From assembly GCF_000497125.1 (NCBI RefSeq), contig NC_090601.1:1116001-1180000 (forward strand): a stretch of 64,000 bases of DNA. Reading direction: 5' to 3'. Under the pieces are notes generated by a model. It searched no databases, was not told where the DNA came from, and saw only the letters and a program-made list of their open reading frames with translations. The stretch comes from Spironucleus salmonicida. Taxonomy: Eukaryota. The translations under genes and the position numbers were made by a program. Shown in pieces: positions 2,260 to 43,694 of the stretch (position 1 is the stretch's first letter; each line of letters opens with the position of its first letter).

Positions 2260-3840
2260 TCATTAATTTGCCTTAACTGCAATGATTATAGTTACTATCA
2301 CAACAATTATTAGAACTGATCCAAATACCAGGCATAATGTCAATTTCAAAGCATTAAATGAATCAATTTCACAAAAATAGCTATATTGAGAATCATAAAT
2401 ATTATTAATTAACATTAAAGGTCTAAATGAGATCTTTAAATTCTTAATAAAAGCATTTTATCGATTATAATAGTCCCCATGATAAAATAGATATATTGAA
2501 CTATCTGTTTCATTTTTTCTATTAAGGCAAGTCTTGTAATATATAACAGATTCGAATTATAAATGATATTCATATGATTAGTACGTTTGTCTACTGGCAT
2601 ACGATGAATCTACCTAAAGCACTTATTATATCTTTGTTATTATATTTTTAGAATACAGTTATATGCAACGTTCAGATTAAACTGGGAAAAACACCACGCA
2701 CGTATCACTATATGATACCAAAGTCATAAATTTATAAAAACAAGATAATACAGCTGGATAATATTTACCCTCCTCCCTTATGATTGAACCATCTGCAGCA
2801 ATTAGTGTCACAAATACAAGAATTGTGGTCGCAGTTGAATCAGTTAAAATTGACTCATTAGTATTCTTAAACATAAAAAGAATACCTCCTGTATTGACAA
2901 TTGTTTCAAAATCCGCTTAATCTATATATTGCTTACTCGTAAAAATAGCACTAGAATTGACCACAGAAGCTCCTTTTTAACATGTGTTAAGTGATGAAAG
3001 ATTCCCAACGATTTATAGTGTTTAACTTGTTATTGATCCAAATCCATCTATTGCAGTTTAACACTCCATACTTTACGAGCTGATGTTCCGAATGTAGCTG
3101 AAGATTTACTGCTCTAGGCTGGATCCTGGCTGTGTGAAATGCATAGACAGCCGTATTTGCATTTGCCTGTCTGCGGTAAACTCTGTAAAGAATGTATCAA
3201 TCTGCTTTTGTATTTCTGCCGTTGAGTCAGAAAAATTAAGTCGGTAGAACTTTGTGGACAGGTGCACGAATGGCAGTTTGTAGCCTTCGTAGTCGGCTGG
3301 TGCGGGATCTAAGGGGGCGATTGCAATCTGCTTCCACTGGGACCCCACTTAATATTGCAGACTTACGGTTGGATCCGTGATCAAGCAATCATTGGGGGTG
3401 CCTGACAGGTTCAGGTAGGACGTTTTCCCGCTCCTCGAGTAGTTTAAGCTAAGATCGCTCCAGCAATTTGACGTGTTGACGAGCGTGTTGGTTATTAGGG
3501 AAAACTAGCCGGGAACTTCTAGCTATTCTTGCAGTAGCATGGTGTAGGAGATTATGGTCAGTTTCGTCATTATACTAAATACACCAGCAGGAATTTTATC
3601 AAAATAAATGGTTAAAGATCCCTCGGAAAAATACTAAAATTCTGTCTCTATGGATTTTGTTGATCCAGCATCAATATAATTTAGTTTAGCCTTAGAAAGT
3701 GTGTTATTGAATGCTACGCATTTAATGGGAGCAGGTACCATATTGCTAATTTATATTATGTACTGTGACTTTTACATAGTAGCTATCAAAGTTGAATTGC
3801 TATGGAAGCATTATGTAACTTCAAATAAGACTAGGAGCAT
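2260..3840 (-). CDS. Type I membrane/surface protein, 526 aa; paralog of 12638-14218
   Basis: Code-6 ORF MLLVLFEVTQCFHSNSTL...; start chosen by homology; same length (1581 nt) as and colinear with the 12638-14218 gene; C-terminal hydrophobic helix. Confidence 0.8.
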
Positions 3841-4006
3841 TTTGCAATATAGATCAATATAAAACTTAATCTTCTAATAATCTTCTCGATAAATTGATAT
3901 TTCCATTTTGCTTTCTCATCGTTAATTAACACTTTCTAAATTAATGATATTGCATTTTTGCAAAATCAAAAATCAAAATACATTTAATTATATATAATTC
4001 ACATTT

Positions 4007-4986
4007 ATGGAAACAGTTTCTAGCATATAACTAAAAACTTCTAAGAAACGCGCATCCAGACTTGACGAATAGCACATGCAGAGCACACCAAAAAGCCTAT
4101 TTTGTGTCTAAATACGCAAATCCGCACATTCAAGTACTCGCTGCAGCAAGCACACCAAAATTACTCTACTGCGCTCATCGTTTTCCGGAGCGGAAATCGT
4201 GAATTTCCTGGAAACCGCTCTGCATTTTGGGACGTTTTTGGCGGCTGGGATTTTGCGATTTCTGGCGTCTTGTTTTACTTCCTCGAGAAGAGAGTCAAGC
4301 GGCCGAATTTTCCTCGATTATGACTCGATTTTGCCCCTGCGAAACCCGCTCTCGGACGTTCTCATTACCACCACGCTGAATTTCACTAATTCGCTATCGC
4401 TTCAGAATCTGTGGAATCAGATTCTGACTTTTGTGGCGTTTCCGGCTCTGCTTTTGGCGTTATTAGCACCTTTATCAACAACTACATGTCGCGGTCGATA
4501 GTTACGCGGTATTTGATGCCGATAGTGCAGCTCGTTTTGCTCGTCCAAATGGCCGTATTCGCAGGGGTGTTCTAGCACAAATACGGGGCTTTAGTCATGT
4601 TCTTCGCGTACATTTTCTTCTCGGTGTGGGTGCAGCAGCATACTTTCGGGCTGCTTCTCACATGCGCCCCAAGGTCTCTTTCCCAGTACGTTTGTGGATT
4701 TCCGGCGCTATCTAGAACCTTTGGCAGCTCTCTCGCCGGGAGTCTGAACCAGAGCATCTTCGCGATCGTAGGAGCAATCATACCAAATGACGATTCCAAA
4801 AAGTTCATCGTCAGCGTGATTTCTGTGGTGGTTTTTCAGATGGTCCTGGTGGTTTTGACTGTTCTAATATCCTTCATGCGCTTCGGAAATCACGAGGATG
4901 AGGCGCACAAGAAGGGCTACCAGAAGCACAAGGTCAGAAAACTGAAATTTATCGAGGAATCGCATCATTCTGCAAGTGAAGTTTGA
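4007..4986 (+). pseudogene. Multi-TM transporter-like (MFS-like) gene with apparent frameshift(s)
   Basis: Frame from ATG 4007 stops at TGA 4514-4516; the hydrophobic multi-helix reading continues in another frame from about 4441 (GSAFGVISTFINNYM...) to TGA 4984-4986. Confidence 0.4.
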
Positions 4987-5980
4987 GGTAAATTATTCAT
5001 TTTAGCGATTAAAGGCGGTTTTCTATTTAAAAAATTATGTTTAAACTGTATTTCGCGATAATGTAGGTTAAGAGTAGCATATTTTTCAAACTACGTAGTA
5101 TCTACTTTAAATGGTACGTATCACCTTTGTTAGTGGCCTAAGTATAACTAGACAAAGGCTAAGCTCGGTGTGTAAGCGAAATTATGCAAATCATATTTCA
5201 GCACATGTTAGACGATTCCCAGCGTAACCTAGCAGTAAAACCAAAAACTATCTATGCAGGCTATAAAACTGGGTTGCTTGGCAGTGGGATTTTACTATTA
5301 AATAGTAAAACTGCAAAGTTCTATCTTCGCTAGAACCTATTAAATATCGGTCTTTGGAAATCTTAAGGATCAAAATTAACATTTACTTTTCGAAGAGGAA
5401 CCTGTTTATTTGGATATTTTAAAATAAATAATATTTGGTAACTAAACAGTCTTAATATAAGGTTTATCTTGGTGCAGTTTTGACAGTACAAAAGCAATAG
5501 TGGAAATCAGCTGTAACGTAAAACCTAGGACTACTAAAGTACAAAATTGTTATGCAGTCAGAGCCTAGTTAGTATAACAAGCTATCTAGCTTACTCGTAT
5601 CGCTACCTGCATACGTAAACTAAACTGCTGGATTAGCAAGAATAATTTCCAGGTACGTATGCAATTGCTGCTATCTGGGATTGCTAAGTAATTGGGCTAT
5701 CAGAGGTATACCTTATTCCCCCTATAGTACCTTGAATCTTATGCCTATCTAAATGAGTAGCTGTGGCAAAATCGAGCTATCTTGGCTTAATTTGCAAGAG
5801 GCATTTTCCAACTGTCACGTTAATTCTCGGCATATAATTGTATAATAATATGCAATTATATTTCCACTCCAAAAGATTTTAAATACCTCTTAGCTCCTTT
5901 CCCCTACTCCAGTGATCTTATATCCGCTTTTTATCCATTCAAGTTTTATTTTGTATGATATAAATGCAAAGTTATATAAA

Positions 5981-8400
5981 ATGCCCACTTCGTGCATCCC
6001 TAAAATTGCTTACTAGTCCGCTAAGCAAGTAGCTGTTTTGCCGTCCGAAACCTGCTCCGAATTTGGCAGGTAGACCACAGTCCAGGACTAGGCCTAAAAC
6101 GAGTCATTTCCGCAAGAAAATTGGCCAACTCATCTGCCACCTAATGAGCGCACGCCGTCCATTTTACCTGAAAATATAGTGGAGCCTCGAGTTCAAAATC
6201 AACTTTTTGCTCCTAATATTAAAGATCCCAGCAATTTCCAAAACTATGTCTTGGACTAAGACGCTGTAATTTGCGAGTTGGAAAGCGTCTACAAAGTAGC
6301 GCTTTAGAGCAAGGGTTCGCTACAGTCATTTCGGGTAAATGGAGCGGTTTTGCTACCTAGCTAGAAGTGCTCACTCAGCGACTAAAAGGCGCCTTAGCCG
6401 CATCTGATATAGCCTGTGTGCCTTGTTCTCAGCGATAAATAACTCAATTCCGTACCAATTCAGCTCCTACGCTGCTGCTAACAAGTCCAATAAACCGATC
6501 CAAGTTCAGGCAATTCTTAGGGAGCTTTGAAAAATGCAAGTTGCCGACCAGAAGTTTACTTATATCAGTTACAGTATTTGGGCCTCAGAAGCTGGGAAAC
6601 GACTAGAATTTGTGCGATTTGGCACTTGTTATTGACTAGAATCAGAACTGCCCCTCAGCGCAAGAGGACCATAAATCGGACGTTAAATCGTCGATAAAAA
6701 GCTTTAAAACGGCGTTTTAGGGGAAAATATGCATAAGCGCTAAAATCGGCAAGCTGGAACTGAAGAAGCCTTAAAAAGCGGCTGGCGCGTGTTTAGAGCA
6801 ACTTAGCTTGGTAGATGCGACGGTTTAGATGCTGTAGGTGTGGAGCGGTATTGCGATAAATAGCGTTGTCATAGAAAATAGCAGCATAGTAGGCGCGAGG
6901 CAGACAAGTGGGGTTGCGCTTGCTGACGGGTTTGCGGGGCTGAGCCAGGCTAAGAACCTACGCAAGCTGGTGCTCCACCGGCAAAGCTCAATTGAATTCC
7001 CCGACCGTGACTGCACCATCAAGAACCTCATAATAGGCAATAATACCGACTTTTTAGAGGAGCTTTCGATCAGGCTTTACAAAATCGAAAATCTGGAAAT
7101 TAGCTGTCCGGTGTTAAACTACAGGTTCAGCAAAGGGAACGTTACCAAGTACTCTTACAGCCATCCTGGTAGATTTATCTCCATTTACGTTGAATACGAG
7201 AACTCTTGCTCCGGATATGCGCAATGGGAACGTATAGAAATCTTGGAACATTATAGATACATCGTCGACTGCAGTTTTGCTTCGTATGATTTGTCGAAAT
7301 TCAGCATAATATCGGTGCCTATCACTGTTATTTAGGTTATGAGGCTGCATAATCTTCTTTGCAGGCGGGATTTCGCCGAAATTTGCATGTAAAACATCTA
7401 CATCCTTAGAGTTCCTGAGAATCTGATAGGCAAGAAGTTGCATACCTTCCATTAGATTGAAAATCTCTCATTATCAAACGACGAAATTAATAATAAATTA
7501 CATGTAATCACAGATATTACAGCCAACATGCCGATCCCGAAAAATACAAAATCCCTAGTTATACAAACTAAATCCTATTTAAAGCTAGAGTTACAGGAGA
7601 AGTATAGTATTACTACCTTAATCTACGAAAACTCGCCGATAGCTGAAATTAGCAATGCTATTCATGTTAAGAATCTAACGGCTATTGGAGTAGATATTTA
7701 TGTCTATTTGCTGTCAAACTTTTATAATTTGTGCATTAAGGATTCCAAAATTGAAAATTTCGCTATTTAGAAGACCGGAAATCTGCAGCTTAAAACGCTA
7801 CAGATAGAAGACTGCAGCTTTCTAGAGGAATTAAGAGAAAGCCTCTTCGACCTCTTACAGCACACACATAATATTGAGTCCCTCTTCATTTCTGAAAAAG
7901 CATCCAATTCTGTACCTTTGCAGCTGTTCCTCCACCCAAACATCAAGTCAGTAACCCTGCGTAACCTGGCAATCGAAAAACTCGAGTTTTCTGATCTGCG
8001 GAATCTCTCATTTCTCTCCGTTTCCTCAGCTATAATTCTAAACCCCCTGGTGCAGAAGTTCACTCGCCTTCTCTAAACCCGGTCTCTTGGCTCTCTGCGC
8101 CTAGAAAACCTGAAACTGGGTCTCATAGGCGAAGATAGCTAATTAGCCGCGTGCAGTATGCAGCTAAAATGCCTCATTCTGCGCCGCAGCGTCGATTACT
8201 GGCTCAGAACAGGAATTAATGACGCTTTCTTGATAGGCAGCGACAAATTCTACACGACGCCGACACCGTCGTGCGAGACTGAAGTTTCCGCAGAATTCGG
8301 TCGAAATTTGGAGACTTTGGCACGCCTGCCAAGGGCTTTGGAGCGCTATACGATGATCGCGAAGATAAATTTGATAGGAAAGCAAACGGTTGGCGAGTGA
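5981..8400 (+). CDS. Leucine-rich-repeat-like protein; apparent frameshift in the 5' third
   Basis: One frame open 6148-8400 in code 6 with LxxLxL-type motifs (NLRKLVLH, QLKTLQIEDC, NLSFLSVS); ATG 5981 is in a different frame that stops near 6760. Confidence 0.5.
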
Positions 8401-9562: not shown

Positions 9563-10735
9563 TCATTGTGATGGGCGCGCCGACCCTGTATAACTATTTA
9601 ATCTGGCGCGTGCATTCAAAGCCGGGCACTGCACGCACACGGCAAGCTGGTCCATCTGGTACGCGAGGGTTTTGGCCAGGACCAAGTCGCCGATCTGGAT
9701 GGTGAACTCGGTGGGCTGCGGCTCCAGGTAGGGGCACTGCCGGGAGAAGGCGTTCCGGATGAAGTTCCCGCAGACCTCGCCGGTGTTAAAAGTGGCGAGT
9801 ATCGAGGACCAGCAGGTATTTTCGACAGAGGTTATCCGCGTGGAGGAGTACAAGTATGCCGTATCGGCCTGGTCATAGAAGTAGTAATGCACCAGTATGT
9901 CGACCTCCAGCAGATTCATGTTCTGAAGCACTCCGATCAGCCGAGAGCACTCCCCGCCATCGGTGGAGTCGTCGCACGTGATGCCTCGGTCAATGGCCGC
10001 GAAGTCAAAGTCGTTAGCCGCGAAGAACAGATTGTCAATCGTCCGCGCTGTGATCACGCTGAATATCTAATACCGCAGCCTTATGCGGCGCATTTGCGGC
10101 ATGTACAGGGCGTTCAGCTCCGCAGCATTCGCGAGGCCGTCGCCAAGGATGTTAAACTGCCCCGCCCAAACCGTAAAAATGGCGCTGGCGTACATCGTGT
10201 CTAGCTGCGCGCTCTGGATCATGCTGATGGCCGCGAGCTTCACAATGGTGGTGGTGTCCAGCTTTATGTAGAACCGCACCTTCAGCTGGTTAAAGTTCTC
10301 GAGCACCCATCTCGAAAAGTCGTAGCTTACGGTGATCTGCACCAGGCTCCCTGCCGCGCTTTCGGTGTAGACAGGGTCCCCCGCCCCGTCCTGCCCGCTG
10401 ACGCCCAGCTCTACAATGTCGCCAGCCAGGCCGAAAAACTGGAACGCGAAATGCTCTATGGCCCTGTCTGAGTTGGGGCACTCCCCGGCCAGATGGAGCG
10501 CAACGACGGCCTTGTCCGCCTGCCAAAATATCTCGTTCCGCGCGCTGTCGTAGCAGCCCGAGGTGGCCGGGTGCGCGATGAGGATCTGCCCCACCGGCAG
10601 GGTCGTCATCCGGGTCAGGGACTTGATGCAGATGTTGGCAGCCAGCGCCTCCTGGATGAATTGGCAGGTGGAGTCCGACCCGATGGCCGGGCACGAGTAG
10701 CAGAGGCGGGCGTCGTCCCTGTAGTTGTAGTTCAT
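9563..10735 (-). pseudogene. GC-rich Cys-containing surface-protein-like gene, disrupted at both ends
   Basis: 391-codon code-6 ORF joining ORFs 10067-10846 and 9563-10057; upstream protein-like sequence (VIFDSDPSPECEQLPQGIYLDIQVSNFPDSVIR) is out of frame and preceded by TGA; another shift near 9600. Confidence 0.55.
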
Positions 10736-12637: not shown

Positions 12638-14218
12638 ATGCTGATTGTGCTATCTGGACTGACACAATGCTTCTACTCTAATTCAACTTTAATAGGAGTG
12701 ATGCAAAAGAAGTAATATGAGATCACAATTACGAACTTAGATCCATCGCCTATTAAATGTCAAGCTTTCAACAATAGTCTTTCAATAGCTAAACTAAATT
12801 ATGTTGATGCTAGAACAACAAAATCAATAGAGACAGAATTTTAGTATTTTTCAAATGGTTCCTTAAAGATTTTGTTCGACAGCATCCCAGCAAAGGACTT
12901 TGACGTTATGAATAAACTGTCTATAATCTCCTACACCATGCTACTGCAAGAATAGCTAGAAGTTCCCGGCTAGTTTTCCCTAATAACCAACACGCTCGTC
13001 AACACGTCAAATTGCTGGAGCGATCTTAGCTTAAACTACTCGAGGAGCGGGACAACATCCTACCTGAACCTGTCAGGCACCCCCAACGACTGTCTCATTA
13101 ACGATCCTAAAATTTTCATTCAGTACCAGGTAAATGGCACGTGGAACTCGATTCCAATCGCCCCCTTAGATCCCGCACCAGCCGACTACGAAGGCTACAA
13201 ACTGCCATTCGTGCACCTGTCCACAAAGTTCTACCGACTTAATTTTTCTGACTCAACGGCAGAAATACAAAAGCAGATTGATACATTCTTTACAGAGTTT
13301 ACCGCAGACAGGCAAATGCAAATACGGCTGTCTATGCATTTCACACAGCCAGGATCCAGCCTAGAGCAGTAAATCTTCAGCTACATTCGGAACATCAGCT
13401 CGTAAAGTATGGAGTGTAACACCTAACTTGAAGCGTTTGGGGCAGTTTCGTCCGGCACGCTTTAAATTGTAGGTGATTTAACTGCATTCAACAGCTGCTA
13501 GGTTGGTACTGCCTTCGTTAACTCAAGTGCAATTTTTATGTACTAGCAAAATAATGACCGCCGGCCAATAAATGTAATTGCAAGCATGGGAGGTATTCTT
13601 TTTGTACTACCGTCTAAAAATGAATCTGTGCTGACTGACCCATCAGTTACAGACATTATCCTTTTCATTACTCTTATAAAAGAAGATGGTACAATACTGC
13701 GTGAGGAAGTAAAATACTACAAAGCAGTTCTATCATGCTTCTACAATTTCCTCACATTGGTATCTTATACGGATACATGCCTTATATTTTTCCCAGTGCA
13801 GTCAGAAAGATGTGTTGAATTATACTCACACAAAGTAAAAACACGCATTCAGTAAATCTTGTAACCAACTGCGGCATCTTCTAGCCGTTTGGTCCATTAG
13901 GTTTATGAATTTGTAATGCCCTTCGAATCAGTTAACTATTTCAAAACTTGCTTGAAAGGATAAAATACAACAAGAGATTCTACATACAAATTTTACCCTG
14001 GAGATTTTCCGTAGAGATAAGCCGGATTTGTTGATAATTTAGCTTCATCATTTCAGCCGCTAATAATCATTAACAATGACCAAGATTTTTAGTTTGCGTA
14101 CTTATGTTCGAATAATACATTTTAAAATGTATTACTTATCTTACTGTTAACATTTTTGGCTGTTGCTGTAGTCTTAGTAATTGCTGTCACTGTTATAACT
14201 GTTAAAATGCACTAGTGA
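12638..14218 (+). CDS. Type I membrane/surface protein, 526 aa; paralog of 2260-3840
   Basis: Code-6 ORF MLIVLSGLTQCFYSNSTL... ending in TM helix FLAVAVVLVIAVTVITV, then TAG TGA. Confidence 0.8.
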
Positions 14219-17195: not shown

Positions 17196-17210
17196 TAGTG
17201 GAGTGGTAGC

Positions 17211-30769: not shown

Positions 30770-30875
30770 TGTAGTGCCCAAAGAATGCGCGTACAACCTT
30801 TCTGCGCTAAACTAAAATGAATAGTATTTTACTCACTTCATCGTCCCTAAATTATACAGCCCTGCATCAAAGATA

Positions 30876-31803: not shown

Positions 31804-32196
31804 ATGGGACATACTATCTCCTTCCAAATGCACGCAGTTAAATCTTTTTAGTACTCTAAAGTGCATCCTATGAAGCCCCCATCCACGTTGCACAGTTATT
31901 AGATATCTAATGACTTTGAATATGCACCGAATTTAGTATTACTGCCATATAAACATAATGTCATTATAGACTTTAATATCCCATCTTGTCCAAAATAGTA
32001 ACCAAACTATTATGTACACCGTAGTTTTCGAAAATATGAAACTTTAAAAGTTCCATAGTTCATGTTTATTGATTAAAATCAACTTATTCGCAAGGAATAA
32101 ATAGAATCTACCACTGTGTTTCGTGGAGCTCGAAGGACCCGTATGTGCCAATATTAGTAGGCATTATTAAATATCCAGATAAATGTAAACAAATGA
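31804..32196 (+). CDS. Hypothetical protein, 130 aa (inverted spacer copy)
   Basis: Reverse complement of 27701-28093. Confidence 0.55.
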
Positions 32197-33733
32197 ACGA
32201 AATTTATCCTAATACGTTGTCTACTTTTTCATCATAATACGAATATTTCCAAATAAACCATTAGCTAATTAAAGTGTTTATGCCTATAATGAGTGAATAA
32301 TCTTTTTACATTTTGTATAGTATTTTTTAAAATTGTTACTGAAATATAAACACAAGGTGTAGTGTTATTGTATTTTTTTATTTTGTATCTTTTCAGGATA
32401 TTACTCAGTAGCAAATATCTGGGTTATTTATACTAAGAAATTGATATAATCTATATTAATAATGAATTTTGGCAATGAGTATTAAAGATAAGGTCAGGTT
32501 TTGGATGTAAAGTTTACAATTTGTTTGATATTTTAGACCATCACTAAGACTACAATAAACGGGTTTTGGAATTTTCTATTATTTATATAGCCGAATACGC
32601 TTGATTAATACATTTTCTAATTATCAATAAGGAATACAAATTATAAGTATCAGGTATCTTATGCTTTTCCAAATTATTAATATACTTTACTTTAAACGTT
32701 ACTAAATAATTTATCTATAGGAAAATTTAACAGTCTTAAGTTATGAGCGGTTATCACAAATAATAAGTCTAAATAATAACCATGTATTCAATTGCATATA
32801 ATAAATATGAGTATATGAACTAAATAAAATTACGATAGAGAAATAACTTTATTGTGCTCATTATGGAAAAAGTAGCAGGATTTTCGATATAGTTAGAAAT
32901 TAAATATATGGTTAAGTCGTTTGAGCGAATAAACTTCAAAATAACTAATATTCCTTTCTAGCAGTAAAAGATTCGTAACACTTATAGTTAATAATAGTAC
33001 CAGATAATTGATGTTATACTGTATGTTTAACACTAATATGTATGATGCCTTACAAAAATCAGAATAACTAGATCATTTTGGTATTATAAGTTTCTAACCT
33101 AGATAATTATTTAAAAATTATTAACATTTTAAAAAATATATTTATGGTAATGATTATTCAAAGATCAAACTTTACTTAGTTAGTATAAAATATTACATTA
33201 CTACATTTCTATATCATAACAAATCTTATATTTAAACTTGAAAATTATAAAACATAATCATGATTGACAGATAGGTCAATTTTAAAAGATTAATGAAAAT
33301 TAGAAGAAGACCTTCTTAAACAAAATAATATTTAGAATATATTTTAATTTATTCTGATTAGATACTATAAATTAGCTTATATAATAAATATCAATTAATG
33401 GCATCTAATTTTTAATATAATTTTAGTAATTTTTGCTAGTGCTCCTTATAATATCTATATAACTCTCTATGATAAAAGTTAAAAATCAAAATTCGGCGAA
33501 GTACTAACATTGATATGAATAAATTCATAATTAATTACTTAATATAATAACTATATATAGAAAATAGAGTACTCGTAACGGATAACTTAATAATTTAGAT
33601 GCTATACTTTACCTAAAATGATTTAAAATAAATTTAGTATTATAACCCCCTAAACCTTACTAGAGTATGCAGTTTCCAACTTAATATTTAGCGGTTGGTG
33701 CGTTTGAAGCTTATCATAACTGAGCACAAAAGA

Positions 33734-34045
33734 TCATTTTATCACCAACTTGAGGCATTCAAGCTGTTGAATTTCAGACTAGATGTTATGTAGGGTATAG
33801 TCAGTCCTATCTTCACCTTATGAGATATCTTCCTTATTTAATGTATCTACCAGGAGCATTTAATTCATAGTCTGGCACAACCTGTTTGATGTGAGTTAAG
33901 ATGGGGTTTGTAAAGGAGGTATATGAGTACTAATTCCACAGTCGGGTATTTATTATAACTTTTACGGCAATACACATTATTTACGTTTATTTCTTTGATC
34001 ACTTGTGTGTTACCCCCTACGTCGTGCTAACGACATATCTCGCAT
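33734..34045 (-). CDS. Hypothetical protein, 103 aa (inverted spacer copy)
   Basis: Reverse complement of 25852-26163. Confidence 0.5.
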
Positions 34046-34602
34046 TTGCTAAGATCAAATAATCTATAATTTTTATATATTAATGGTATATAAATATATT
34101 AAAGCTCTAAAAACCATAGAATATCAAACTCTCAGTGTTCAACAGAATAGATGAGAGAAATACGGATAGTGATTATTCATGAACATTGATCAATATAAAC
34201 CTCTATGTTGAAGAGACAGCAAAATATACTTTACAAAATTGATAATGAATGAGTATCAATATACCTGAAATTATCATTCGAGGAGCTTAGCCGCTTTTCT
34301 AGCCTGTGCGGAATCTAGTACGTCTAGAATCTGAGGACGATCGATATGCGCATATACAGGCGGGTGTGCCTATACTATACCTCTCTAGCTATGTTCCGCG
34401 GCGACGGCGGACTTTTAAGACTATTATGACAAGAAAACTTGGTTAAGGTTCTCAATCTGTGAGGCCTTGTAAATCTTTGCATTCACGTGTTCCATTCGTG
34501 ATCATGTGGCCCGTTTTATATAATAATCTCCACCCCGCTCTGTTAGTTCAATATTATATACACCACTCCACAAATTCTCCTCTCCTCTTTCACTTCCTCC
34601 AA

Positions 34603-35175
34603 ATGGAATTTATTAAGGACCTCCTCCTTAGGATATCAGATATCGGCGTCATTGGTGTCAATGATGGTGTATTTGACAGAGATTTCCGCCCTGACTCAGA
34701 GGATGTCAAGGATCAGCGTGTAACACGCGAGATTCTCAAAGAAGTGTTTGGAAAGTTTGGTTTCATCAAGCATGTAGACTATGCCGCTGGTAAGACTGAG
34801 GCCGTGCTAAGGTTTTCTGAATAAGACGTTGATGCAACCAAGAAGGTTATGGAAGAGTTTGCCGAGACACCTCTTGTCCTTGGGCAGAATGAGGTTAAGT
34901 TGTCCATCGTCAGTGGTGACGAGGAAGCCGAAGTATATAAGAACATTAGAGAAAGCTTTGCAAAACGTGGTGATAACCGTGGTGGATTCAATGGCGGTGA
35001 CAGACGCGGAGGATATAATGACAGACGCGGTGGTGACAGAGATGGTGGTGATAGACGTGGCGGTTATAATGATAGGCGTGGTGGTGATAGGGACGGCGGC
35101 GACAGGCGTGGTGGATACGAGAAAAGAGATGGCGGTGATAGACGTGGCGGGTATGAGAGGCGCGACTACAAGTGA
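34603..35175 (+). CDS. xRRM+RGG RNA-binding protein (copy 4)
   Basis: Same allele as copy 1. Confidence 0.85.
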
Positions 35176-35889
35176 TATCTTTGATGCAGGGCTGTATAAT
35201 TTAGGGACGATGAAGTGAGTAAAATACTATTCATTTTAGTTTAGCGCAGAAAGGTTGTACGCGCATTCTTTGGGGCACTACATCATTTCTCAATATCGAA
35301 AAGGTTGCTGCAGCTACGCATAAAACTTTGCCTTCGGATGAGTTTTATATGGCTCGGTTCTTGCAGCCCGTCCTCCTACTCAACAAAGCTCCCCTTCCTT
35401 ACTTTATTGACCACGCGCCATTCGCTCTCAGCTGCTTCACGAACTTTATCTATATCGGCGAGCCGCTATTGGAGTCGAATGTGAGGGATGATGTCCTGGG
35501 TGAAATCCCTGAACCTAAAAAATTGCAAGTGCTAGTGTTATATAAAATAACATTTAAATACATACTAATTATTAAAACACTTCTTACAAATCTTCAGATT
35601 TAACAAAAAAATGGTTATTTTAAAATATTTACAAGCAAAATCTTTATTGATAATGAAGTTTATATCAAGTTTTCATCTTTGAATGAATATTATTACTGAA
35701 ATTTGGGAAAATACGGATAAAATATCATTAATATTATCAGTTTGAATTTAATTTCAGGATGTGCAATATTTTATTAATTTATGATAAGGTATTACATTCA
35801 TAATTTAATGTAAAGCTATAGACGATTATTTCTAATCTATATTCATAGATCCATAAATAATTAAATTACACATCGTGGTAGCGCTTTAA

Positions 35890-36219
35890 TCATTTTAAAT
35901 CTGCTTGTTTTCGGATTTCGCAATTTTCAAGTTAAAGGTCTCGATTAAAAGTTTATAATAATATTAACTGTTCACGAAAATCAAGTATTTGATCAATATA
36001 TTCTTCACATTTAGTCATAAGATGTTATTTTTATGCTAGGAGATCAACTTTATCTAGTTCAAGTGTTAAAATTTTCTACCGAAGAAGCGTTAGTTCAGAT
36101 AAACCCACTTCAGGTATGGAGTTTTACTTTACTTATTTTATTTCATCTGTATTTTATTCTTTAAGTTCGCTAAGACGTTTTCTGAATAAGTTATTACATT
36201 AATTTAGGGACAGATTCAT
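35890..36219 (-). CDS. Hypothetical coiled-coil protein, 109 aa (copy 2)
   Basis: Direct repeat of 29735-30064. Confidence 0.55.
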
Positions 36220-36444
36220 TTATACTAGCGAATTTTAAATTATTATATTATATTATGTATAGTATAAATATATTTATATAAAATGTATAGAAAAGTTTTA
36301 TATCTATAGTATTTAATCTACCATAGATTACTTCATTAATAGTTTAATTTATAATTGATACCATTGGTGCTGTATTTACCGATCTAAAATATTACTATCA
36401 TATTTAGTATATATCGGCGCGCTAAGATCAACTCTAATTATTAA

Positions 36445-36924
36445 ATGAGAACCGTGATTAAACCAGTAAATAAACCACACATCTAAAAATATAGTGAGCA
36501 GTATTCGCATAAATCAACTCTCTTACCGTGCATGAAGAACAAATCTTTCTAGATGCCTTCATTACACGCAAGTTCCTTTAGTGTTCCGTAGGCATATCTT
36601 ACTAAACCTGTCCGAAGCTTAATCCTGAGAAATGTATACCCAGAACAAACAGATTAAATTCCGGTATTAAAAAGATAGATATCTTAGATAAGCTTCAGGG
36701 ATTTCACCCAGGACATCATCCCTCACATTCGACTCCAATAGCGGCTCGCCGATATAGATAAAGTTCGTGAAGCAGCTGAGAGCGAATGGCGCGTGGTCAA
36801 TAAAGTAAGGAAGGGGAGCTTTGTTGAGTAGGAGGACGGGCTGCAAGAACCGAGCCATATAAAACTCATCCGAAGGCAAAGTTTTATGCGTAGCTGCAGC
36901 AACCTTTTCGATATTGAGAAATGA
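36445..36924 (+). CDS. Hypothetical protein, 159 aa (copy 3)
   Basis: Direct repeat of 24135-24614. Confidence 0.6.
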
Positions 36925-37030
36925 TGTAGTGCCCAAAGAATGCGCGTACAACCTTTCTGCGCTAAACTAAAATGAATAGTATTTTACTCACTTCATCGTC
37001 CCTAAATTATACAGCCCTGCATCAAAGATA

Positions 37031-37603
37031 TCACTTGTAGTCGCGCCTCTCATACCCGCCACGTCTATCACCGCCATCTCTTTTCTCGTATCCACCACGC
37101 CTGTCGCCGCCGTCCCTATCACCACCACGCCTATCATTATAACCGCCACGTCTATCACCACCATCTCTGTCACCACCGCGTCTGTCATTATATCCTCCGC
37201 GTCTGTCACCGCCATTGAATCCACCACGGTTATCACCACGTTTTGCAAAGCTTTCTCTAATGTTCTTATATACTTCGGCTTCCTCGTCACCACTGACGAT
37301 GGACAACTTAACCTCATTCTGCCCAAGGACAAGAGGTGTCTCGGCAAACTCTTCCATAACCTTCTTGGTTGCATCAACGTCTTATTCAGAAAACCTTAGC
37401 ACGGCCTCAGTCTTACCAGCGGCATAGTCTACATGCTTGATGAAACCAAACTTTCCAAACACTTCTTTGAGAATCTCGCGTGTTACACGCTGATCCTTGA
37501 CATCCTCTGAGTCAGGGCGGAAATCTCTGTCAAATACACCATCATTGACACCAATGACGCCGATATCTGATATCCTAAGGAGGAGGTCCTTAATAAATTC
37601 CAT
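37031..37603 (-). CDS. xRRM+RGG RNA-binding protein (copy 5)
   Basis: Same coding allele as copy 1. Confidence 0.85.
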
Positions 37604-38160
37604 TTGGAGGAAGTGAAAGAGGAGAGGAGAATTTGTGGAGTGGTGTATATAATATTGAACTAACAGAGCGGGGTGGAGATTATTATATAAAACGGGCCAC
37701 ATGATCACGAATGGAACACGTGAATGCAAAGATTTACAAGGCCTCACAGATTGAGAACCTTAACCAAGTTTTCTTGTCATAATAGTCTTAAAAGTCCGCC
37801 GTCGCCGCGGAACATAGCTAGAGAGGTATAGTATAGGCACACCCGCCTGTATATGCGCATATCGATCGTCCTCAGATTCTAGACGTACTAGATTCCGCAC
37901 AGGCTAGAAAAGCGGCTAAGCTCCTCGAATGATAATTTCAGGTATATTGATACTCATTCATTATCAATTTTGTAAAGTATATTTTGCTGTCTCTTCAACA
38001 TAGAGGTTTATATTGATCAATGTTCATGAATAATCACTATCCGTATTTCTCTCATCTATTCTGTTGAACACTGAGAGTTTGATATTCTATGGTTTTTAGA
38101 GCTTTAATATATTTATATACCATTAATATATAAAAATTATAGATTATTTGATCTTAGCAA

Positions 38161-38472
38161 ATGCGAGATATGTCGTTAGCACGACGTAGGGGGTAACACA
38201 CAAGTGATCAAAGAAATAAACGTAAATAATGTGTATTGCCGTAAAAGTTATAATAAATACCCGACTGTGGAATTAGTACTCATATACCTCCTTTACAAAC
38301 CCCATCTTAACTCACATCAAACAGGTTGTGCCAGACTATGAATTAAATGCTCCTGGTAGATACATTAAATAAGGAAGATATCTCATAAGGTGAAGATAGG
38401 ACTGACTATACCCTACATAACATCTAGTCTGAAATTCAACAGCTTGAATGCCTCAAGTTGGTGATAAAATGA
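38161..38472 (+). CDS. Hypothetical protein, 103 aa (third copy)
   Basis: Direct repeat of 25852-26163. Confidence 0.5.
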
Positions 38473-38679
38473 TCTTTTGTGCTCAGTTATGATAAGCTTC
38501 AAACGCACCAACCGCTAAATATTAAGTTGGAAACTGCATACTCTAGTAAGGTTTAGGGGGTTATAATGTTCACTTTTTATGATTTGTATTAATTGTTTGG
38601 TTTTAAATTTTATCTTATAGAGATTTAATATATTAAAGTTTCCTCAATTTTATTTACTTCCAATTTACCATTTCATAAA

Positions 38680-39036
38680 ATGACCAGGCAGGTGATGCGG
38701 TTCCAATTACAGTAGCTGGGTGACGAGCTGGAGATAGCGCGTATAGAAGTTTAGGAGGGCAAGGATGCCCAGATGGGGTCTGTGCTGCTGAAGGAGATTA
38801 GGATGCTGCAGGCGAGACTGGAGCTGCTGGACGCGAGGGCTGCAGAGGAAGGTATGTAGGTGGCAGCAGCATTGGAGGTCCAGAAGCGCACGGTATTGCG
38901 CATGGTTGGCTCGAGGGAGGCGCATCTCGCCGGAGAAAAGCGAGACGCGGCGGAGCGTGTAGCCACAGCTAAGCGCAGGGTCCAGGAACTCGGGGCGGCG
39001 CGTGAGGAGCTTCGCGGTCGCATCAGAGGCCTCTGA
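38680..39036 (+). CDS. Hypothetical coiled-coil protein, 118 aa, GC-rich
   Basis: Code-6 ORF MTRQVMRFQLQQLGDELEIAR...ELRGRIRGL*. Confidence 0.65.
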
Positions 39037-39060
39037 GTAATTCATCTAATTCCACTCCTA

Positions 39061-39354
39061 ATGCAGTTCAAGTTTACGTCGGCTGAGACGGGCTTCACGG
39101 CGAGCGTGACAAAGGAGATCTCGTCGATCGCGCAGCTGTTCGAGATCGCCGGGGAGGCCATGGGGATCGCGGGCGAGTTCATCCTCCAGACGCCAGAGTA
39201 CCGCCTGGGGAAGGACGATCGCGTGAAGTTCCCGCAGCTGCAGCCGGAGAACGAGTACAAGCACTTTCTGGTGGTCCCGACCGGTGGAAGACAGCCGGCG
39301 CTTTAGGCGACGCTGGTGGACGTGGACCCAAGCGGGGGTGCGGAGGAAGTGTGA
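39061..39354 (+). CDS. Putative ubiquitin-like (beta-grasp) protein, 97 aa, GG at residues 75-76 (left copy)
   Basis: MQFKFTSAETG...HFLVVPTGG followed by a 21-aa extension; one TAG read through. Confidence 0.5.
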
Positions 39355-39383
39355 TTGTATATGTCGGCACTCGCTTCCTCAAA

Positions 39384-39899
39384 ATGAACAACATCGAAAC
39401 TGCGTACCTGCGCAGCAAAAAGCGCCTAGGGGGCCACCCCTGCCGCCTCGTCCTGGACCGCAGAATATGCGAGTCCCAGCTGTCGACCTCCAGATAGCTG
39501 GCCGCAGTACGGGAAAGCCGTGACCGCATAGCTCGAATGCCGTCGCCCCCACCTGATAGCGCTCCAGTCAACGAGCTGCAGTAGTTCTGGGCCCGCTAGG
39601 CCAAAACGGCAAGACTTTAGAATGAAATGACGCAGAGAAATGTCAGAGATGTCGAAATCGTCAACCAAAACGAGAAATAGATTGAAACCTACTATGCATT
39701 CGAACAGATAGAGACGGTGCGCCGGCGTCCACTAAGATAACGATTACCTGACGATATTTGGGATCTTACGTAAGAAATAAAGAGAGTGACTAAAGTAGAT
39801 GAATGGTTGGAGAGCGTACTTCTAGGCCGAATTGCAGTACAAACAATGCAGCTGCGAAGGATGCGGCGGGAATTGACCTACGGTTTTGATTTTGAATGA
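39384..39899 (+). CDS. Hypothetical protein, 171 aa (left copy)
   Basis: Code-6 ORF MNNIETAYLRSKKRLGGHP...YGFDFE*. Confidence 0.6.
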
Positions 39900-40281
39900 A
39901 ATATAATTATTATATAAAATATTCTTGTGATTTCAATTTAAAATCCGACCACCACTTCTCTATTTCGGCTCTTTGATATCCTGGACCCTGGACCGTTCCA
40001 GCTTCTGTAGAAATCTCTGAGACAATGAGAAGGCCCGTTTGCTTACCAGCTTTAGATTTTGCAGTCTGAGCTGAGTCGGGTTTGAATATTTTCAATTATT
40101 TTTTAACGTCATTTAGGTAGTGACTATATAACAAAGAACATTTTAGACAATAATATTTAGTCGTGTTTAACAAACAGCAGATGTATGCAAATGCATTTTC
40201 TTAGTGTTAGTTAATATTTAAGTTTTAAATTAATATTGTAATGGAAGCATGCAATACTAATTTAAGAATAAACTTATCGAA

Positions 40282-40917
40282 TCACTCTGCTAAGCAAGTT
40301 TTTGCAGATTCATATATATTATAAATAGTGCTAGTTGATCCAAACATGGTCCAGTCTACATTATAAACTCTGCAGCCCATTCCCTTAAGCTACTATACTA
40401 ATATTTTATAACATGCATCAAGTCCTTCTAAATATTCAACTTAAATGTTCATCTCGTAATCACGTTTTCTTATATTTTTTATTCTATAAAGGCAAGTTTC
40501 TGGCGAGACATCAAGATAAACTACTGCGGTTGGAAGAGGAATCTTAGAGACAATATCATTGTATTTAATTAAGTATTAATCAAACTAGTTCTATGATATG
40601 AAACCATCTTAAAACGCTAATCTCGCAAATACGGAATCTGAGAACACACTTCTATCTAATATAACTATATTATTCGGTTATTCAATAGCTATCTAGCATG
40701 CATGTTTATAGTGTTGTATTCTTTGTTCTAAAAACCACATTTAGAATTCAAAGGACCATTTTTTAGGGTCTTCATAGAACTTTGCCAAATAAGGGTTATC
40801 GGTAACGGGTTCCTCTAACGCATATAAATTGTACTCATTAGCTAAATTATGCAGTAATGATGTTTTACCGGCTGCTATACCACCCTCAAGAATCAAAAGA
40901 TTAGGCAGGGAATTCAT
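40282..40917 (-). CDS. Deoxynucleoside kinase (dNK/dAK/dGK family), 211 aa (left copy)
   Basis: Mirror of 41278-41913. Confidence 0.92.
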
Positions 40918-41277
40918 TATATAAAGGAGAGGTGAATTGAAATTTTGGTTATATTATATATTTAATATGTATCTACATTTTCACCCGGGAAATACAACTG
41001 AAGGATTCTATCTTTATTTATTGAACCTAATCAAATATATCTTTAATACTATTATTACAACAGAGTTACTAAAATCCAATTTGTATAATAGTGTCATACT
41101 TTTATTATTTGAAAAAAAATAGAAATCATCGATTTGATGTATTTAATTTAATTTTTATATTTGATTAGGTTCAATAAATAAAGATAGAATCCTTCAGTTG
41201 TATTTCCCGGGTGAAAATGTAGATACATATTAAATATATAATATAACCAAAATTTCAATTCACCTCTCCTTTATATA

Positions 41278-41913
41278 ATGAATTCCCTGCCTAATCTTTT
41301 GATTCTTGAGGGTGGTATAGCAGCCGGTAAAACATCATTACTGCATAATTTAGCTAATGAGTACAATTTATATGCGTTAGAGGAACCCGTTACCGATAAC
41401 CCTTATTTGGCAAAGTTCTATGAAGACCCTAAAAAATGGTCCTTTGAATTCTAAATGTGGTTTTTAGAACAAAGAATACAACACTATAAACATGCATGCT
41501 AGATAGCTATTGAATAACCGAATAATATAGTTATATTAGATAGAAGTGTGTTCTCAGATTCCGTATTTGCGAGATTAGCGTTTTAAGATGGTTTCATATC
41601 ATAGAACTAGTTTGATTAATACTTAATTAAATACAATGATATTGTCTCTAAGATTCCTCTTCCAACCGCAGTAGTTTATCTTGATGTCTCGCCAGAAACT
41701 TGCCTTTATAGAATAAAAAATATAAGAAAACGTGATTACGAGATGAACATTTAAGTTGAATATTTAGAAGGACTTGATGCATGTTATAAAATATTAGTAT
41801 AGTAGCTTAAGGGAATGGGCTGCAGAGTTTATAATGTAGACTGGACCATGTTTGGATCAACTAGCACTATTTATAATATATATGAATCTGCAAAAACTTG
41901 CTTAGCAGAGTGA
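41278..41913 (+). CDS. Deoxynucleoside kinase (dNK/dAK/dGK family), 211 aa (right copy)
   Basis: P-loop LEGGIAAGKT, EEPV..NPYLAKFYEDPKKWSF, LDRSVFSD, VYLDVSPETCLYRIKNIRKRDYE; absent from the ORF track because of TAR=Gln. Confidence 0.92.
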
Positions 41914-42295
41914 TTCGATAAGTTTATTCTTAAATTAGTATTGCATGCTTCCATTACAATATTAATTTAAAACTTAAATATTAACTAACACTAAGAAAAT
42001 GCATTTGCATACATCTGCTGTTTGTTAAACACGACTAAATATTATTGTCTAAAATGTTCTTTGTTATATAGTCACTACCTAAATGACGTTAAAAAATAAT
42101 TGAAAATATTCAAACCCGACTCAGCTCAGACTGCAAAATCTAAAGCTGGTAAGCAAACGGGCCTTCTCATTGTCTCAGAGATTTCTACAGAAGCTGGAAC
42201 GGTCCAGGGTCCAGGATATCAAAGAGCCGAAATAGAGAAGTGGTGGTCGGATTTTAAATTGAAATCACAAGAATATTTTATATAATAATTATATT

Positions 42296-42811
42296 TCATT
42301 CAAAATCAAAACCGTAGGTCAATTCCCGCCGCATCCTTCGCAGCTGCATTGTTTGTACTGCAATTCGGCCTAGAAGTACGCTCTCCAACCATTCATCTAC
42401 TTTAGTCACTCTCTTTATTTCTTACGTAAGATCCCAAATATCGTCAGGTAATCGTTATCTTAGTGGACGCCGGCGCACCGTCTCTATCTGTTCGAATGCA
42501 TAGTAGGTTTCAATCTATTTCTCGTTTTGGTTGACGATTTCGACATCTCTGACATTTCTCTGCGTCATTTCATTCTAAAGTCTTGCCGTTTTGGCCTAGC
42601 GGGCCCAGAACTACTGCAGCTCGTTGACTGGAGCGCTATCAGGTGGGGGCGACGGCATTCGAGCTATGCGGTCACGGCTTTCCCGTACTGCGGCCAGCTA
42701 TCTGGAGGTCGACAGCTGGGACTCGCATATTCTGCGGTCCAGGACGAGGCGGCAGGGGTGGCCCCCTAGGCGCTTTTTGCTGCGCAGGTACGCAGTTTCG
42801 ATGTTGTTCAT
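42296..42811 (-). CDS. Hypothetical protein, 171 aa (right copy)
   Basis: Mirror of 39384-39899. Confidence 0.6.
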
Positions 42812-42840
42812 TTTGAGGAAGCGAGTGCCGACATATACAA

Positions 42841-43134
42841 TCACACTTCCTCCGCACCCCCGCTTGGGTCCACGTCCACCAGCGTCGCCTAAAGCGCCGG
42901 CTGTCTTCCACCGGTCGGGACCACCAGAAAGTGCTTGTACTCGTTCTCCGGCTGCAGCTGCGGGAACTTCACGCGATCGTCCTTCCCCAGGCGGTACTCT
43001 GGCGTCTGGAGGATGAACTCGCCCGCGATCCCCATGGCCTCCCCGGCGATCTCGAACAGCTGCGCGATCGACGAGATCTCCTTTGTCACGCTCGCCGTGA
43101 AGCCCGTCTCAGCCGACGTAAACTTGAACTGCAT
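42841..43134 (-). CDS. Putative ubiquitin-like protein (right copy)
   Basis: Mirror of 39061-39354. Confidence 0.5.
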
Positions 43135-43694
43135 TAGGAGTGGAATTAGATGAATTACTTAAATGCCTCTAATATGAATTTAACCTGCTCATTATCGTCC
43201 TAAAACACCCGCAGCGTCATCGCGCTGAGCTCGAAATTGCTATAAAGAAGCAGCAAATGGAGAGGGAAATTGCGTGTAGAAACTGATCAAGTATGTGGAA
43301 TACTATCCGTATTCCGCGAGAATATCGAAAAAATCCGTTCCGCTTAAAAATTCGCCTTTTCGCGCAATCGATGTGAAGATGTGCCAGAAACTCAAAGAGA
43401 AAGCAGCAAAATGAGAGCTTTCGGGGATTTGGAATGACGATTTTGCAGATATGAGCGAAATGGCCGACGAGAAACGGCCAAGGGCAGGAAACTATCAGCG
43501 CGTGCACGATTCCGTGAAGGCCAAAATAGATATTTTTGTTTGGGAGGTAGTAGATTTTCTGTGTTCCGAAGTCTAATACGACTTATTTGAAAAGTAATAC
43601 AAGCATTATGTAAAATACTGTAAATAGCATTTTTATTATATAGTATAAAAGATATAATAATTAGTATTATGTAGTTTACCACTTCTTTGTCATA

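Follow-up and report, generated by a model that had tools for sequence, protein, structure and literature searches.

Why do genes of ordinary cellular kind lie in four inverted duplicate systems side by side within about 41 kb of a Spironucleus salmonicida chromosome, and are their arms held alike by copying between them? We examined the surrounding window, i.e. the whole stretch of 64,000 nt (contig NC_090601.1 of assembly GCF_000497125.1, positions 1,116,001 to 1,180,000).

Four inverted systems in one window

A repeat search and a blastn comparison of the window with itself confirmed all four inverted gene-duplicate systems where the original prediction had placed them: an old paralogue pair and the inverted repeats IR1, IR2 and IR3 (Table 1). 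Inverted arms of >99% identity surround unique spacers, the copies being real in the DNA; unique flanks are present on both sides of every repeat, and exact repeats of 1.2-5 kb cannot have arisen by chance. The gaps between the perfect systems are small, with 182 nt from IR1 to the array that contains IR2 and 445 nt from this array to IR3. Elsewhere in the window, blastn self-comparison found no further repeats of at least 80 nt and tblastx no pairs of at least 45 bits, a (CAAT)n microsatellite excepted in both cases. TAA and TAG encode glutamine in the reading frames of the window. The arms carry cellular genes, as had been proposed: Fcf2, an RRM_3/RGG RNA-binding protein, a deoxynucleoside kinase and several orphans.

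Table 1. Features of the inverted systems, in window coordinates
Feature	Position	Strand	Remarks
Old-pair gene 1 (P0003), predicted membrane protein, 548 aa	2260-3906	-	code-6 ORF; exact protein-collection entry
Probable conversion zone, gene 1	3061-3555	-	exact tracts 3426-3555 (130 nt), 3061-3323 (263 nt)
Old-pair gene 2 (P0004), 526 aa	12638-14218	+	code-6 ORF; exact protein-collection entry
Probable conversion zone, gene 2	12923-13417	+	exact tracts 12923-13052, 13155-13417
IR1 left arm	16866-18743		probable homogenised tract, 1878 nt, GC 0.651
Gene X (IR1 left arm)	16866-17195	-	ORF
Fcf2 gene (IR1 left arm)	17211-17744	-	Pfam match
Gene Y head (IR1 left arm)	18082-18741	+	ORF crossing arm end
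Gene Y left copy, diverged AT-rich tail	18742-19419	+	GC 0.30
Kinesin gene, true centre of ancient IR1	19431-21269	-	Pfam Kinesin, E 2.3e-116
Gene Y right copy, diverged AT-rich tail	21402-22010	-	GC 0.20
IR1 right arm	22009-23886		exact reverse complement of left arm
Array, 2.36 units, period 6155	24069 to about 38576		T(863-1174) a S b' T b S' a' T a S(1-626)
Array palindrome, 4981-nt arms	24381-29361 / 30536-35516
IR2, arms of 1251-1252 nt	24381-25632 / 28111-29361		spacer S, 2478 nt
Arm A, five copies	24381-25632(+), 28111-29361(-), 30536-31786(+), 34265-35516(-), 36691-37941(+)		RRM_3/RGG gene of 190 aa in every copy
Spacer S, 2478 nt, GC 0.264	25633-28110		exact reverse complement of 31787-34264 (0 differences); partial third copy 37942 to about 38567
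Spacer T, 1174 nt, GC 0.256	29362-30535		direct copy 35517-36690 (0 differences); partial copy 24069-24380
IR3 left arm, exact 2004 nt	39036-41039		ORFs 39061-39354(+), 39384-39899(+)
Deoxynucleoside kinase (IR3 left arm)	40282-40917	-	dNK, GC3 0.29
IR3 loop, 116 nt	41040-41155		GC 0.18
IR3 right arm, exact part	41156-43159		blastn self-comparison

Identity and GC change together in IR1 and the old pair

IR1 is an old duplication, in which tails of 28% identity adjoin arms of 100% identity. The arms show 0 mismatches over 1878 nt around a 3265-nt spacer; among their three ORFs Fcf2 alone matched Pfam, as a eukaryotic pre-rRNA processing protein. In each copy gene Y reads on past the arm end: codons 1-220 show 100% identity (GC 0.66, GC3 0.77) and the tails beyond share 28% identity over 168 aa (BLASTP E 6e-6). 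Their Smith-Waterman score of 101 was reached by none of 1000 shuffles (mean 43.3, maximum 78) and by none of 22 further AT-rich frames in the window. Base composition breaks at the same place: GC1/GC2 is 0.75/0.45 for the head and 0.24-0.35/0.18-0.28 for the tails, and GC is 0.65 in the arm against 0.20-0.39 in spacer and tails. At each of the four arm ends, GC taken in 50-bp steps climbs from 0.12-0.30 to 0.62-0.72. The non-coding stretch 17745-18081 of the arm also has a GC of 0.66, so that codon selection is not the cause.

Since the gene Y copies bear different yet homologous tails, both copies must exist; an older proteome source (EukProt/MetaClust) lists both versions, each with its own tail, and these two observations support the reality of IR1. 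A search of 5.8 billion proteins returned two members of the gene Y family, both from this window, which leaves no third donor. The duplication is older than the arm identity implies, and the identity has been maintained.

The old pair was expected to be inverted with patchy identity; pair and mosaic were both found, with the interval of gene 1 extending to 3906 rather than 3840. The two proteins are 67% identical. Third-position identity is 1.0 within the exact tracts and a saturated 0.3-0.5 outside them, and GC is 0.46 in the zone against 0.29/0.35 in the remainder of the genes (0.29 for gene 1). Gene 2 has a paralogue of at least 90% identity outside the window, SS50377_26250. Over the 263-nt tract genes 1 and 2 are the same, yet this overall much closer paralogue differs from gene 2 by 2 residues. 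Here too the duplication predates the tract identity, which has been kept up.

Complete identity adjoining saturated divergence in one frame, with a coinciding step in GC, strongly indicates homogenisation with GC gain at IR1 and the old pair. The original prediction had made this a rule for all four systems; it fits these two, where the identity step is the GC step, and lacks support as a general rule. The companion claim that identical segments are the GC-richer ones fails for the spacers S and T (GC 0.26) and for the inner half of the IR3 arm (0.31).

The array and IR3

IR2 does have inverted arms and a spacer present in both orientations, as predicted, and it proved larger than described, being part of an array of 2.36 units. 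The block a-S-b' is mirrored whole in the neighbouring unit, arm variants included. In the small palindrome, 2 substitutions and a homopolymer difference separate arms a and b; as these variants persist, the two arms cannot have been homogenised after the copying of the larger block. From the way S is oriented in the assembly, the spacer may have flipped by arm-to-arm crossover.

The full extent of IR3 is 39022-41039 / 41156-43173, its outer 15 nt containing 3 mismatches. A GC island (38651-39900) crosses the arm end into unique DNA. Older homology was found neither as a rim beyond the array arms nor beyond those of IR3, and neither system shows the maintained identity seen at IR1. Both may be either young inverted duplications or further products of the process proposed for IR1, in which no older rim can be seen. 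That the four systems are successive stages of one process is plausible as an ordering.

Short-read contigs end at the repeat boundaries

Contigs from two short-read sets (X1 and X3, both from one sample, possibly the one that was assembled) have ends that coincide to the letter with each predicted repeat boundary checked in IR3 and the array. Eight X1 contigs had depths of 21.8, 36.1, 45.3, 30.0, 18.9, 8.68, 20.9 and 6.34, for pieces with 2, 3, 5, 3, 2, 1, 2 and 1 assembled copies respectively, depth being an approximate proxy and not a copy number as such; the X3 depths likewise agree with the assembled copies. The IR3 arm is covered by one contig of 2004 nt whose depth is about double that of unique DNA, and a 176-nt X1 contig (41010-41185) consists of the IR3 loop plus 30 nt of each arm (30+116+30). 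Contigs overlap by 30 letters at the repeat boundaries, one letter short of what we counted as a bridge. In a second study, X5 record 22 reaches from the end of the array across the unique DNA and 30 nt into IR3. By the boundary-exact contig ends and fitting depths, a fold-back artefact is rejected for IR3 and for the array.

Weighing the explanations

We think it probable that these are real inverted segmental duplications, of which at least IR1 and the old pair are old, with tracts kept identical by GC-biased non-allelic conversion; from the two mosaics we infer that conversion recurred and was GC-biased. A break in one copy would be repaired from its inverted partner on the same chromosome, and repair of the mismatched heteroduplex would favour G/C. 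Over many rounds, the GC of the tract would climb at all codon positions and in non-coding DNA, while its edge would stay fixed where the flanks are too diverged for pairing. A crossover in inverted orientation would flip the spacer with no deletion, and pairs would therefore persist.

All four systems could instead be segmental duplications of differing age with no ongoing conversion, the arms being GC-rich since genes exceed intergenic DNA in GC (36.2% for coding against 25.4% for intergenic DNA in the published S. salmonicida figures, PMC3916229). The sharp ends of IR3 and the array, their AT-rich parts being as identical as their GC-rich parts, and the persisting a/b variants all suit this account, which we nevertheless regard as unlikely for the locus as a whole. 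It fails on the 100% identity adjoining 28% amino-acid identity within one ORF, on the exact 130- and 263-nt tracts amid saturated third positions, and on the GC of non-coding arm DNA; for IR1 and the old pair, identity abutting saturated divergence refutes it. Somewhat less probable still is a regional cause of the GC islands (local mutation bias, allelic recombination hot spots, or replication or transcription domains), to which the coincidence with repeat arms would be secondary. The Sec7 and NEK genes are GC-rich (GC3 0.71 and 0.58), each a cluster of 1 with no paralogue at 90% identity or more, the IR3 island ignores its arm end, and a 2007 survey of S. salmonicida noted sharp GC shifts as a 'peculiar phenomenon', in a text that leaves them unexplained (PMC1805757). 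Against this stand the four GC steps of IR1, which in either copy, and inside an ORF, lie no more than 50 bp from where identity ends and would require an independent cause ending at the last identical base four times, and the old pair, in which high GC and mosaic identity occupy one zone.

Perfect identity, a 116-nt loop and alternating S orientations are patterns that long-read assemblers can make, as fold-back chimeras, side-by-side alleles or polishing of near-identical copies, and the perfect identity could partly reflect such polishing. An origin of the systems as assembly artefacts is nonetheless very improbable given the unique flanks, the contig breaks, depths and loop contig at IR3 and the array, the different homologous tails of gene Y, and an older proteome source that has gene Y in both versions and the kinase as two identical entries in succession. 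The remaining alternative takes the IR1 arm for an element of foreign or mobile origin that entered twice, in opposite orientations; it draws on the arm's GC of 0.65 in a 0.25 background and on its base-sharp ends, and we find it scarcely credible. The predicted lack of transposases and recombinases held: none of the six ORFs of spacers S and T matches Pfam, and the arm ORFs are Fcf2, RRM_3, dNK or unknown, by which a transposon or composite mobile element was rejected. The IR1 ends have neither terminal inverted repeats nor target-site duplications, and their flanks share no duplicated bases. The arm genes of IR1 read in-frame TAG as glutamine, gene Y runs in frame into homologous tails on both sides, and the protein search found no additional copies of it.

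Relation to known systems

The proposed conversion between inverted paralogues in S. salmonicida is a known process in a new lineage. Arm-to-arm, GC-biased conversion has been described for mammalian sex-chromosome palindromes (human Y P6, PMC3723533; X palindromes, PMC8981503), which according to these accounts share with our systems gene-bearing inverted arms of >99% identity, a unique spacer and, probably, intrachromosomal conversion that keeps the arms alike, and also show GC bias and rare spacer inversions. Their arms measure tens to hundreds of kb, against 1.2-5 kb here (PMC3723533, PMC8981503). In Spironucleus, by contrast, the GC shift is of very large size, from about 0.25 to 0.65, and remodels the composition of the proteins; concerted evolution is inferred there from an old rim within the locus instead of a species comparison, and the host is a diplomonad in which sex is not observed.

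Diplomonads are binucleate and polyploid, and we know of no observation of sex among them. Mouse Fxy spans the pseudoautosomal boundary, a recombination boundary at which GC and amino-acid composition change abruptly within the gene. Gene Y likewise is one gene with such a step, although Fxy reflects allelic meiotic recombination and gene Y probably conversion between inverted paralogues. Plastid inverted repeats undergo flip-flop, spacers occurring in either orientation, and their arms are copy-corrected; there the genome is that of an organelle and both isomers have been shown in one population, whereas the S orientations sit in different units of one assembled array.

Among diplomonads, Giardia muris has seven identical VSP gene pairs, head-to-head or tail-to-tail (PMC7641422). 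As that paper presents them, they resemble our systems in that identical inverted genes flank a few kb of others and recombination or conversion is suspected; they differ in being surface-antigen genes, whereas the Spironucleus arms bear housekeeping-type genes and a GC effect as their main feature. In S. salmonicida itself, 19.2% of the genome is reported as duplicated (2 kb or more, at least 95% identity), mostly in single-gene stretches, with 44.7% GC in duplicated regions against 30.7% elsewhere (PMC9509377). The text of that paper suggests gene conversion for cysteine-rich surface protein regions only, and contains no occurrence of 'inverted', 'palindrom' or 'orientation', though its supplements or scripts may list orientations; the step in identity and GC inside genes, present here, is absent from that text.

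GC islands beyond the repeats

It is possible, as a tentative extension, that the sharp GC islands of S. salmonicida were for the most part left by GC-biased non-allelic conversion between segments that are paralogous and often inverted. If so, conversion without known sex would lift kilobase tracts from ~25% to 65% GC, the amino-acid composition of proteins within them would be rewritten, and tract boundaries would sharpen themselves over time. This offers a testable cause both for the GC heterogeneity of the 2007 survey and for the raised GC of duplicates described in 2022, as these texts give them (PMC1805757, PMC9509377). The half-identical copies of gene Y record directly both the homologous repair between paralogues and the bases that it favours, and bear on how diplomonads recombine and keep copies alike. 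For annotators, GC-rich stretches rich in alanine and arginine may stem from conversion bias and not from selection or gene transfer.

Being GC-rich without close paralogues, Sec7 and NEK show that paralogue conversion cannot explain all GC islands. The gene at 9563-10735 (GC 0.59), single-copy in the window, has a 98% paralogue on the same chromosome.

Genes and inverted systems

By per-frame counts TGA is the only stop: long frames contain TAA and TAG and lack TGA, as in a minus-strand frame of 46451-50700 with 1416 codons, 8 TAA, 9 TAG and 0 TGA. Translation with table 6 (TAA and TAG as Gln) gave long intronless genes. Two other readings were discarded: table 11 yielded only 21 ORFs of at least 150 aa in the window, none of the ten tried matching Pfam, and reading TAG as Glu with TGA as Trp produced no clear genes. 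Four gene models have no exact entry in the protein collection: three of them use alternative starts and the fourth is mis-framed (three Fcf2 starts were tried in total). GC in the window runs from ~0.20 in intergenic DNA up to 0.65 in some genes.

Coordinates of features in the window, with database matches of the encoded products
Feature	Position (strand)	Detail
Old pair, gene 1	2260-3906 (-)	predicted membrane protein
Old pair, gene 2	12638-14218 (+)	membrane protein; with next row, two-gene module
Module partner of gene 2	9563-10735 (-)	GC 0.59
Old-pair exact run	3426-3555 / 12923-13052	130 nt
Old-pair exact run	3061-3323 / 13155-13417	263 nt
IR1 arms	16866-18743 / 22009-23886	1878 nt, no mismatches; spacer 3265 nt
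109-aa ORF	16866-17195 (-)	TGA stop (16866-16868) exactly at IR1 arm outer end
Gene Y starts	18082 (+) / 22670 (-)	
Gene Y tails	18742-19416 / 22010-21405	
Ancient extent of IR1	16866-19419 / 21402-23886	
Array	24069 to ~38576	period 6155
Mirrored array units a S b' / b S' a'	24381-29361 / 30536-35516	exact reverse complements
Arm A gene, first of five copies	24722-25294	190 aa, RRM_3 and RGG repeats
51-nt tandem repeat, and copies	24786-24918	2.2-2.5 copies, 76-78% matches; encodes arm A gene's RGG/GGDR repeats
IR3 arms	39036-41039 / 41156-43159	2004 nt, exact; loop 116 nt
tRNA-Ser(GCT)	44075-44158 (-)	Rfam 55.3 bits; ~900 nt past IR3 right arm
Microsatellite (CAAT)68.8, perfect	54158-54432	SINQ repeats within open frame 53582-54964
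Sec7 protein	55962-58901	Pfam (table 6)
Protein kinase		Pfam E 4.9e-66 (table 6)
Kinesin		Pfam E 2.3e-116 (table 6)
RRM_3 protein		Pfam E 9.1e-15 (table 6)
Large Ig-repeat, cilia-type protein		weak Pfam matches, all except one under curated cut-offs
Fcf2		Pfam 34.7 bits vs cut-off 27
Deoxynucleoside kinase		Pfam E 9.3e-43

The observation of inverted systems was confirmed, while the interpretation first placed on it is partly supported. Repeat search and blastn self-comparison recovered all four systems of the original prediction. Outside the exact arms of IR3 the match goes on for another 15 nt, with 3 mismatches. 'IR2' does have arms (A, 1251-1252 nt) and a spacer (S, 2478 nt) in both orientations, but is not a stand-alone inverted repeat, being part of a larger array of order T' a S b' T b S' a' T a S(1-626), where T is a second spacer, a and b are variants of A, and a', b' and S' are inverted copies. 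The five A copies alternate in orientation; T is always direct; in the middle unit S runs in reverse. Together the mirrored units make up a palindrome, with T at its centre and arms of 4981 nt. Variant a comprises A1, A4 and A5, and b comprises A2 and A3. The variants are told apart by position 25630 and by a C/G difference at 25052 that makes the residue Lys or Asn; both protein variants are present in the annotation. A C4/C3 homopolymer divides the copies otherwise, A1 and A4 against A2, A3 and A5.

No further old pairs were found: window tblastx self-comparison at a 45-bit cut left only the microsatellite, though the gene Y tails discussed below also fall under that cut. Blastn (word size 7) and tblastx revealed no weaker homology past the IR1 outer ends or around IR3, and these searches plus the flank frame gave no older homology past the IR3 arms. 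A mirror gene in the IR3 right flank was ruled out, that frame having a TGA near the arm.

Probable conversion tracts in IR1 and the old pair

Gene Y runs through the inner end of each IR1 arm, with the kinesin gene between its two copies, and both forms are found in the protein collection. Codons 1-220 are identical between the copies. In the tails that follow, an alignment of 168 aa, kept in register, shows 28% identity (E 6e-6); the local alignment score of 101 was reached by 0 of 1000 shuffles (mean 43.3, maximum 78) and by 0 of 22 other AT-rich, TGA-free window frames. Since the tails are homologous in register, the ancient inverted repeat extends past the present arms, around the kinesin gene, with identity confined to its outer 1878 nt. 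IR1 is an old duplication, and its arm is strongly indicated to be a conversion tract. Because the outer arm end coincides with an ORF stop, the homogenised tract ends at a gene end outside and mid-gene inside.

Composition changes at the same boundary. The head of gene Y, in both copies, has GC 0.66 (GC1/GC2/GC3 0.75/0.45/0.77), against 0.30 (0.35/0.28/0.27) in the left tail and 0.20 (0.24/0.18/0.20) in the right; Gln codons are mainly CAG in the head and mainly TAA in the tails. At all four arm ends GC climbs from 0.12-0.30 to 0.62-0.72 (50-bp steps), and GC is likewise 0.66 in the arm's 337 non-coding nt. Had the identity come from one recent copying, there would be no reason for the GC island of the donor itself to stop at the identity boundary. 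Recurrent conversion, limited to the tract that is still similar and biased to G/C, does account for that coincidence. A search for the gene Y family across 5.8 billion proteins, within a set length range, brought up only the two window copies, so a third donor is unlikely.

The membrane proteins of the old pair are 67% identical, with third-position identity of 0.3-0.5 along most of their length, interrupted by the two exact runs; these have GC 0.46, vs 0.29 and 0.35 in the remainder of the genes. A closer paralogue of gene 2 outside the window, SS50377_26250, falls with it in one 90%-identity cluster and aligns with differences at scattered residues. Within the 263-nt tract, genes 1 and 2 agree throughout while this paralogue departs from gene 2 at two residues, which places the exchange between the two inverted window genes. 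Outside paralogues of window proteins lie on the same contig as the window. The two-gene module has further close copies elsewhere on the chromosome, so the duplication-rich block extends past the window: SS50377_26257 is a 219-aa partial copy, and SS50377_26251, nearby, is 98% identical to the module partner of gene 2, a GC-rich gene with one copy in the window (the only gene of that kind checked for homologues).

Identity and GC content

The expectation that homogenisation goes with GC gain thus holds for IR1 and the old pair, where identical tracts are GC-rich and the diverged remainder is AT-rich, but is not shown for IR3 and the array. Copies of S and of T are identical, yet have GC 0.26. 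In IR3, GC is 0.31 over the arm's inner half and GC3 is 0.29 in the kinase gene, and the GC island found at the outer end runs on into unique DNA to its left. IR3 and the array may simply be young. Identity with GC gain cannot explain every GC island. The Sec7 gene has GC 0.54 and GC3 0.71, and the NEK kinase GC3 0.58; neither has a paralogue of at least 90% identity in the protein collection, and paralogue conversion does not explain the GC of the Sec7 gene.

Arm-to-arm GC-biased conversion and rare inversions are established in palindromes of the human Y and the primate X (PMC3723533, PMC8981503); the present case is probably a clean new diplomonad instance of this sex-chromosome-palindrome process. 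A 2007 survey of S. salmonicida describes sharp GC shifts, from 30% to almost 70%, that mutation or selection scenarios did not explain and that were left open (PMC1805757), and the inverted duplicates bear directly on them. The text of the 2014 genome paper uses neither 'inverted' nor 'gene conversion' (PMC3916229). The text of the 2022 chromosome-scale paper gives 19.2% of the genome as duplicated, with GC 44.7% there vs 30.7% elsewhere, and mentions gene conversion solely for surface-protein regions; 'inverted', 'palindrom' and 'orientation' are absent from it (PMC9509377). Giardia muris has seven identical VSP pairs arranged head-to-head or tail-to-tail (PMC7641422). In the open-access literature we found no paper on inverted repeats of the S. 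salmonicida genome, nor (supplements aside) on GC-biased conversion between diplomonad paralogues; none of the matches listed joined biased gene conversion with Spironucleus, and for Giardia there was only a passing mention of GC-biased gene conversion, for rRNA.

Gene cargo and inversion

The arms were said to carry ordinary cellular genes, and Pfam identifies Fcf2, RRM_3 and deoxynucleoside kinase among them, the others being unknown. The reported lack of a transposase or recombinase also stood: none was found, 0 of 6 ORFs of S and T matched Pfam, and arm ORFs are cellular or unknown; nor do the IR1 flanks show duplicated target bases. The sole evidence for inversion is that S, judged against T, points both ways; the arm variants are mirrored along with their unit. 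This arrangement would fit a crossover confined to the outermost 240 nt of the arms, as it would a copying of the entire block in inverted form.

Support from short-read contigs

The region 36000-44500 is present in eight runs from one organism, four DNA-like from one sample and four from a second study. Contig sets X1, X3, X5 and X6 were compared over 35472-41215, chosen as holding one copy of each repeat; the range reaches from within the array into the right arm of IR3. X1 and X3 come from one sample, possibly the assembly's own source. These are de Bruijn contigs, so breaks are expected 30 letters inside each repeat, and they occur at every predicted boundary (35484, 36386/36415, 36694/36723, 37909/37938, 38538/38567, 39036/39065, 41010/41039 and 41185).

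Depth of X1 contigs by repeat piece
Piece	X1 depth	Assembled copies
T, first part	21.8	2
T, last 305 nt	36.1	3
A	45.3	5
S 1-626	30.0	3
Rest of S (1915-nt contig leaving from A inner end)	18.9	2
Unique DNA	8.68	1
IR3 arm	20.9	2
Loop contig (30+116+30 nt)	6.34	1

X1 depth per assembled copy is 6-12 across all pieces, although contig depth is not strictly copy number and boundary overlaps are 30 letters, one under the bridge rule. X3 depths were 228.8, 515.6, 773-989, 547.8, 131.9 (unique) and 258-329 (arm). From the second study, X5 record 22 leads from inside the last S copy through the array end and unique DNA to 30 letters into IR3. The orientation of S is invisible to such short contigs. IR1, which lies outside the range compared, is supported by its two copies with differing tails, both versions being in an older proteome source, where the IR3 kinase appears as two consecutive identical entries.

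Single X1 contigs depart from the assembly at 41022, 40576, 35943 and 36263 and end loosely after 52-255 letters; one of them branches off inside the IR3 arm, 17 nt short of its inner end. Minor variants, further partial copies or errors could lie behind these branches. X5 and X6 appear RNA-like by adapter ends and very uneven depth, a label that is a guess, and leave T and the IR3 loop without cover. Contigs of both end at 37360, and one from X5 resumes at 37362; the a/b variant site, 37361, lies in between, which would fit the presence of both variants. In both, depth is by far highest for the arm A gene (4000-7000, vs 150-700 for IR3 genes), whose five copies may reflect dosage.
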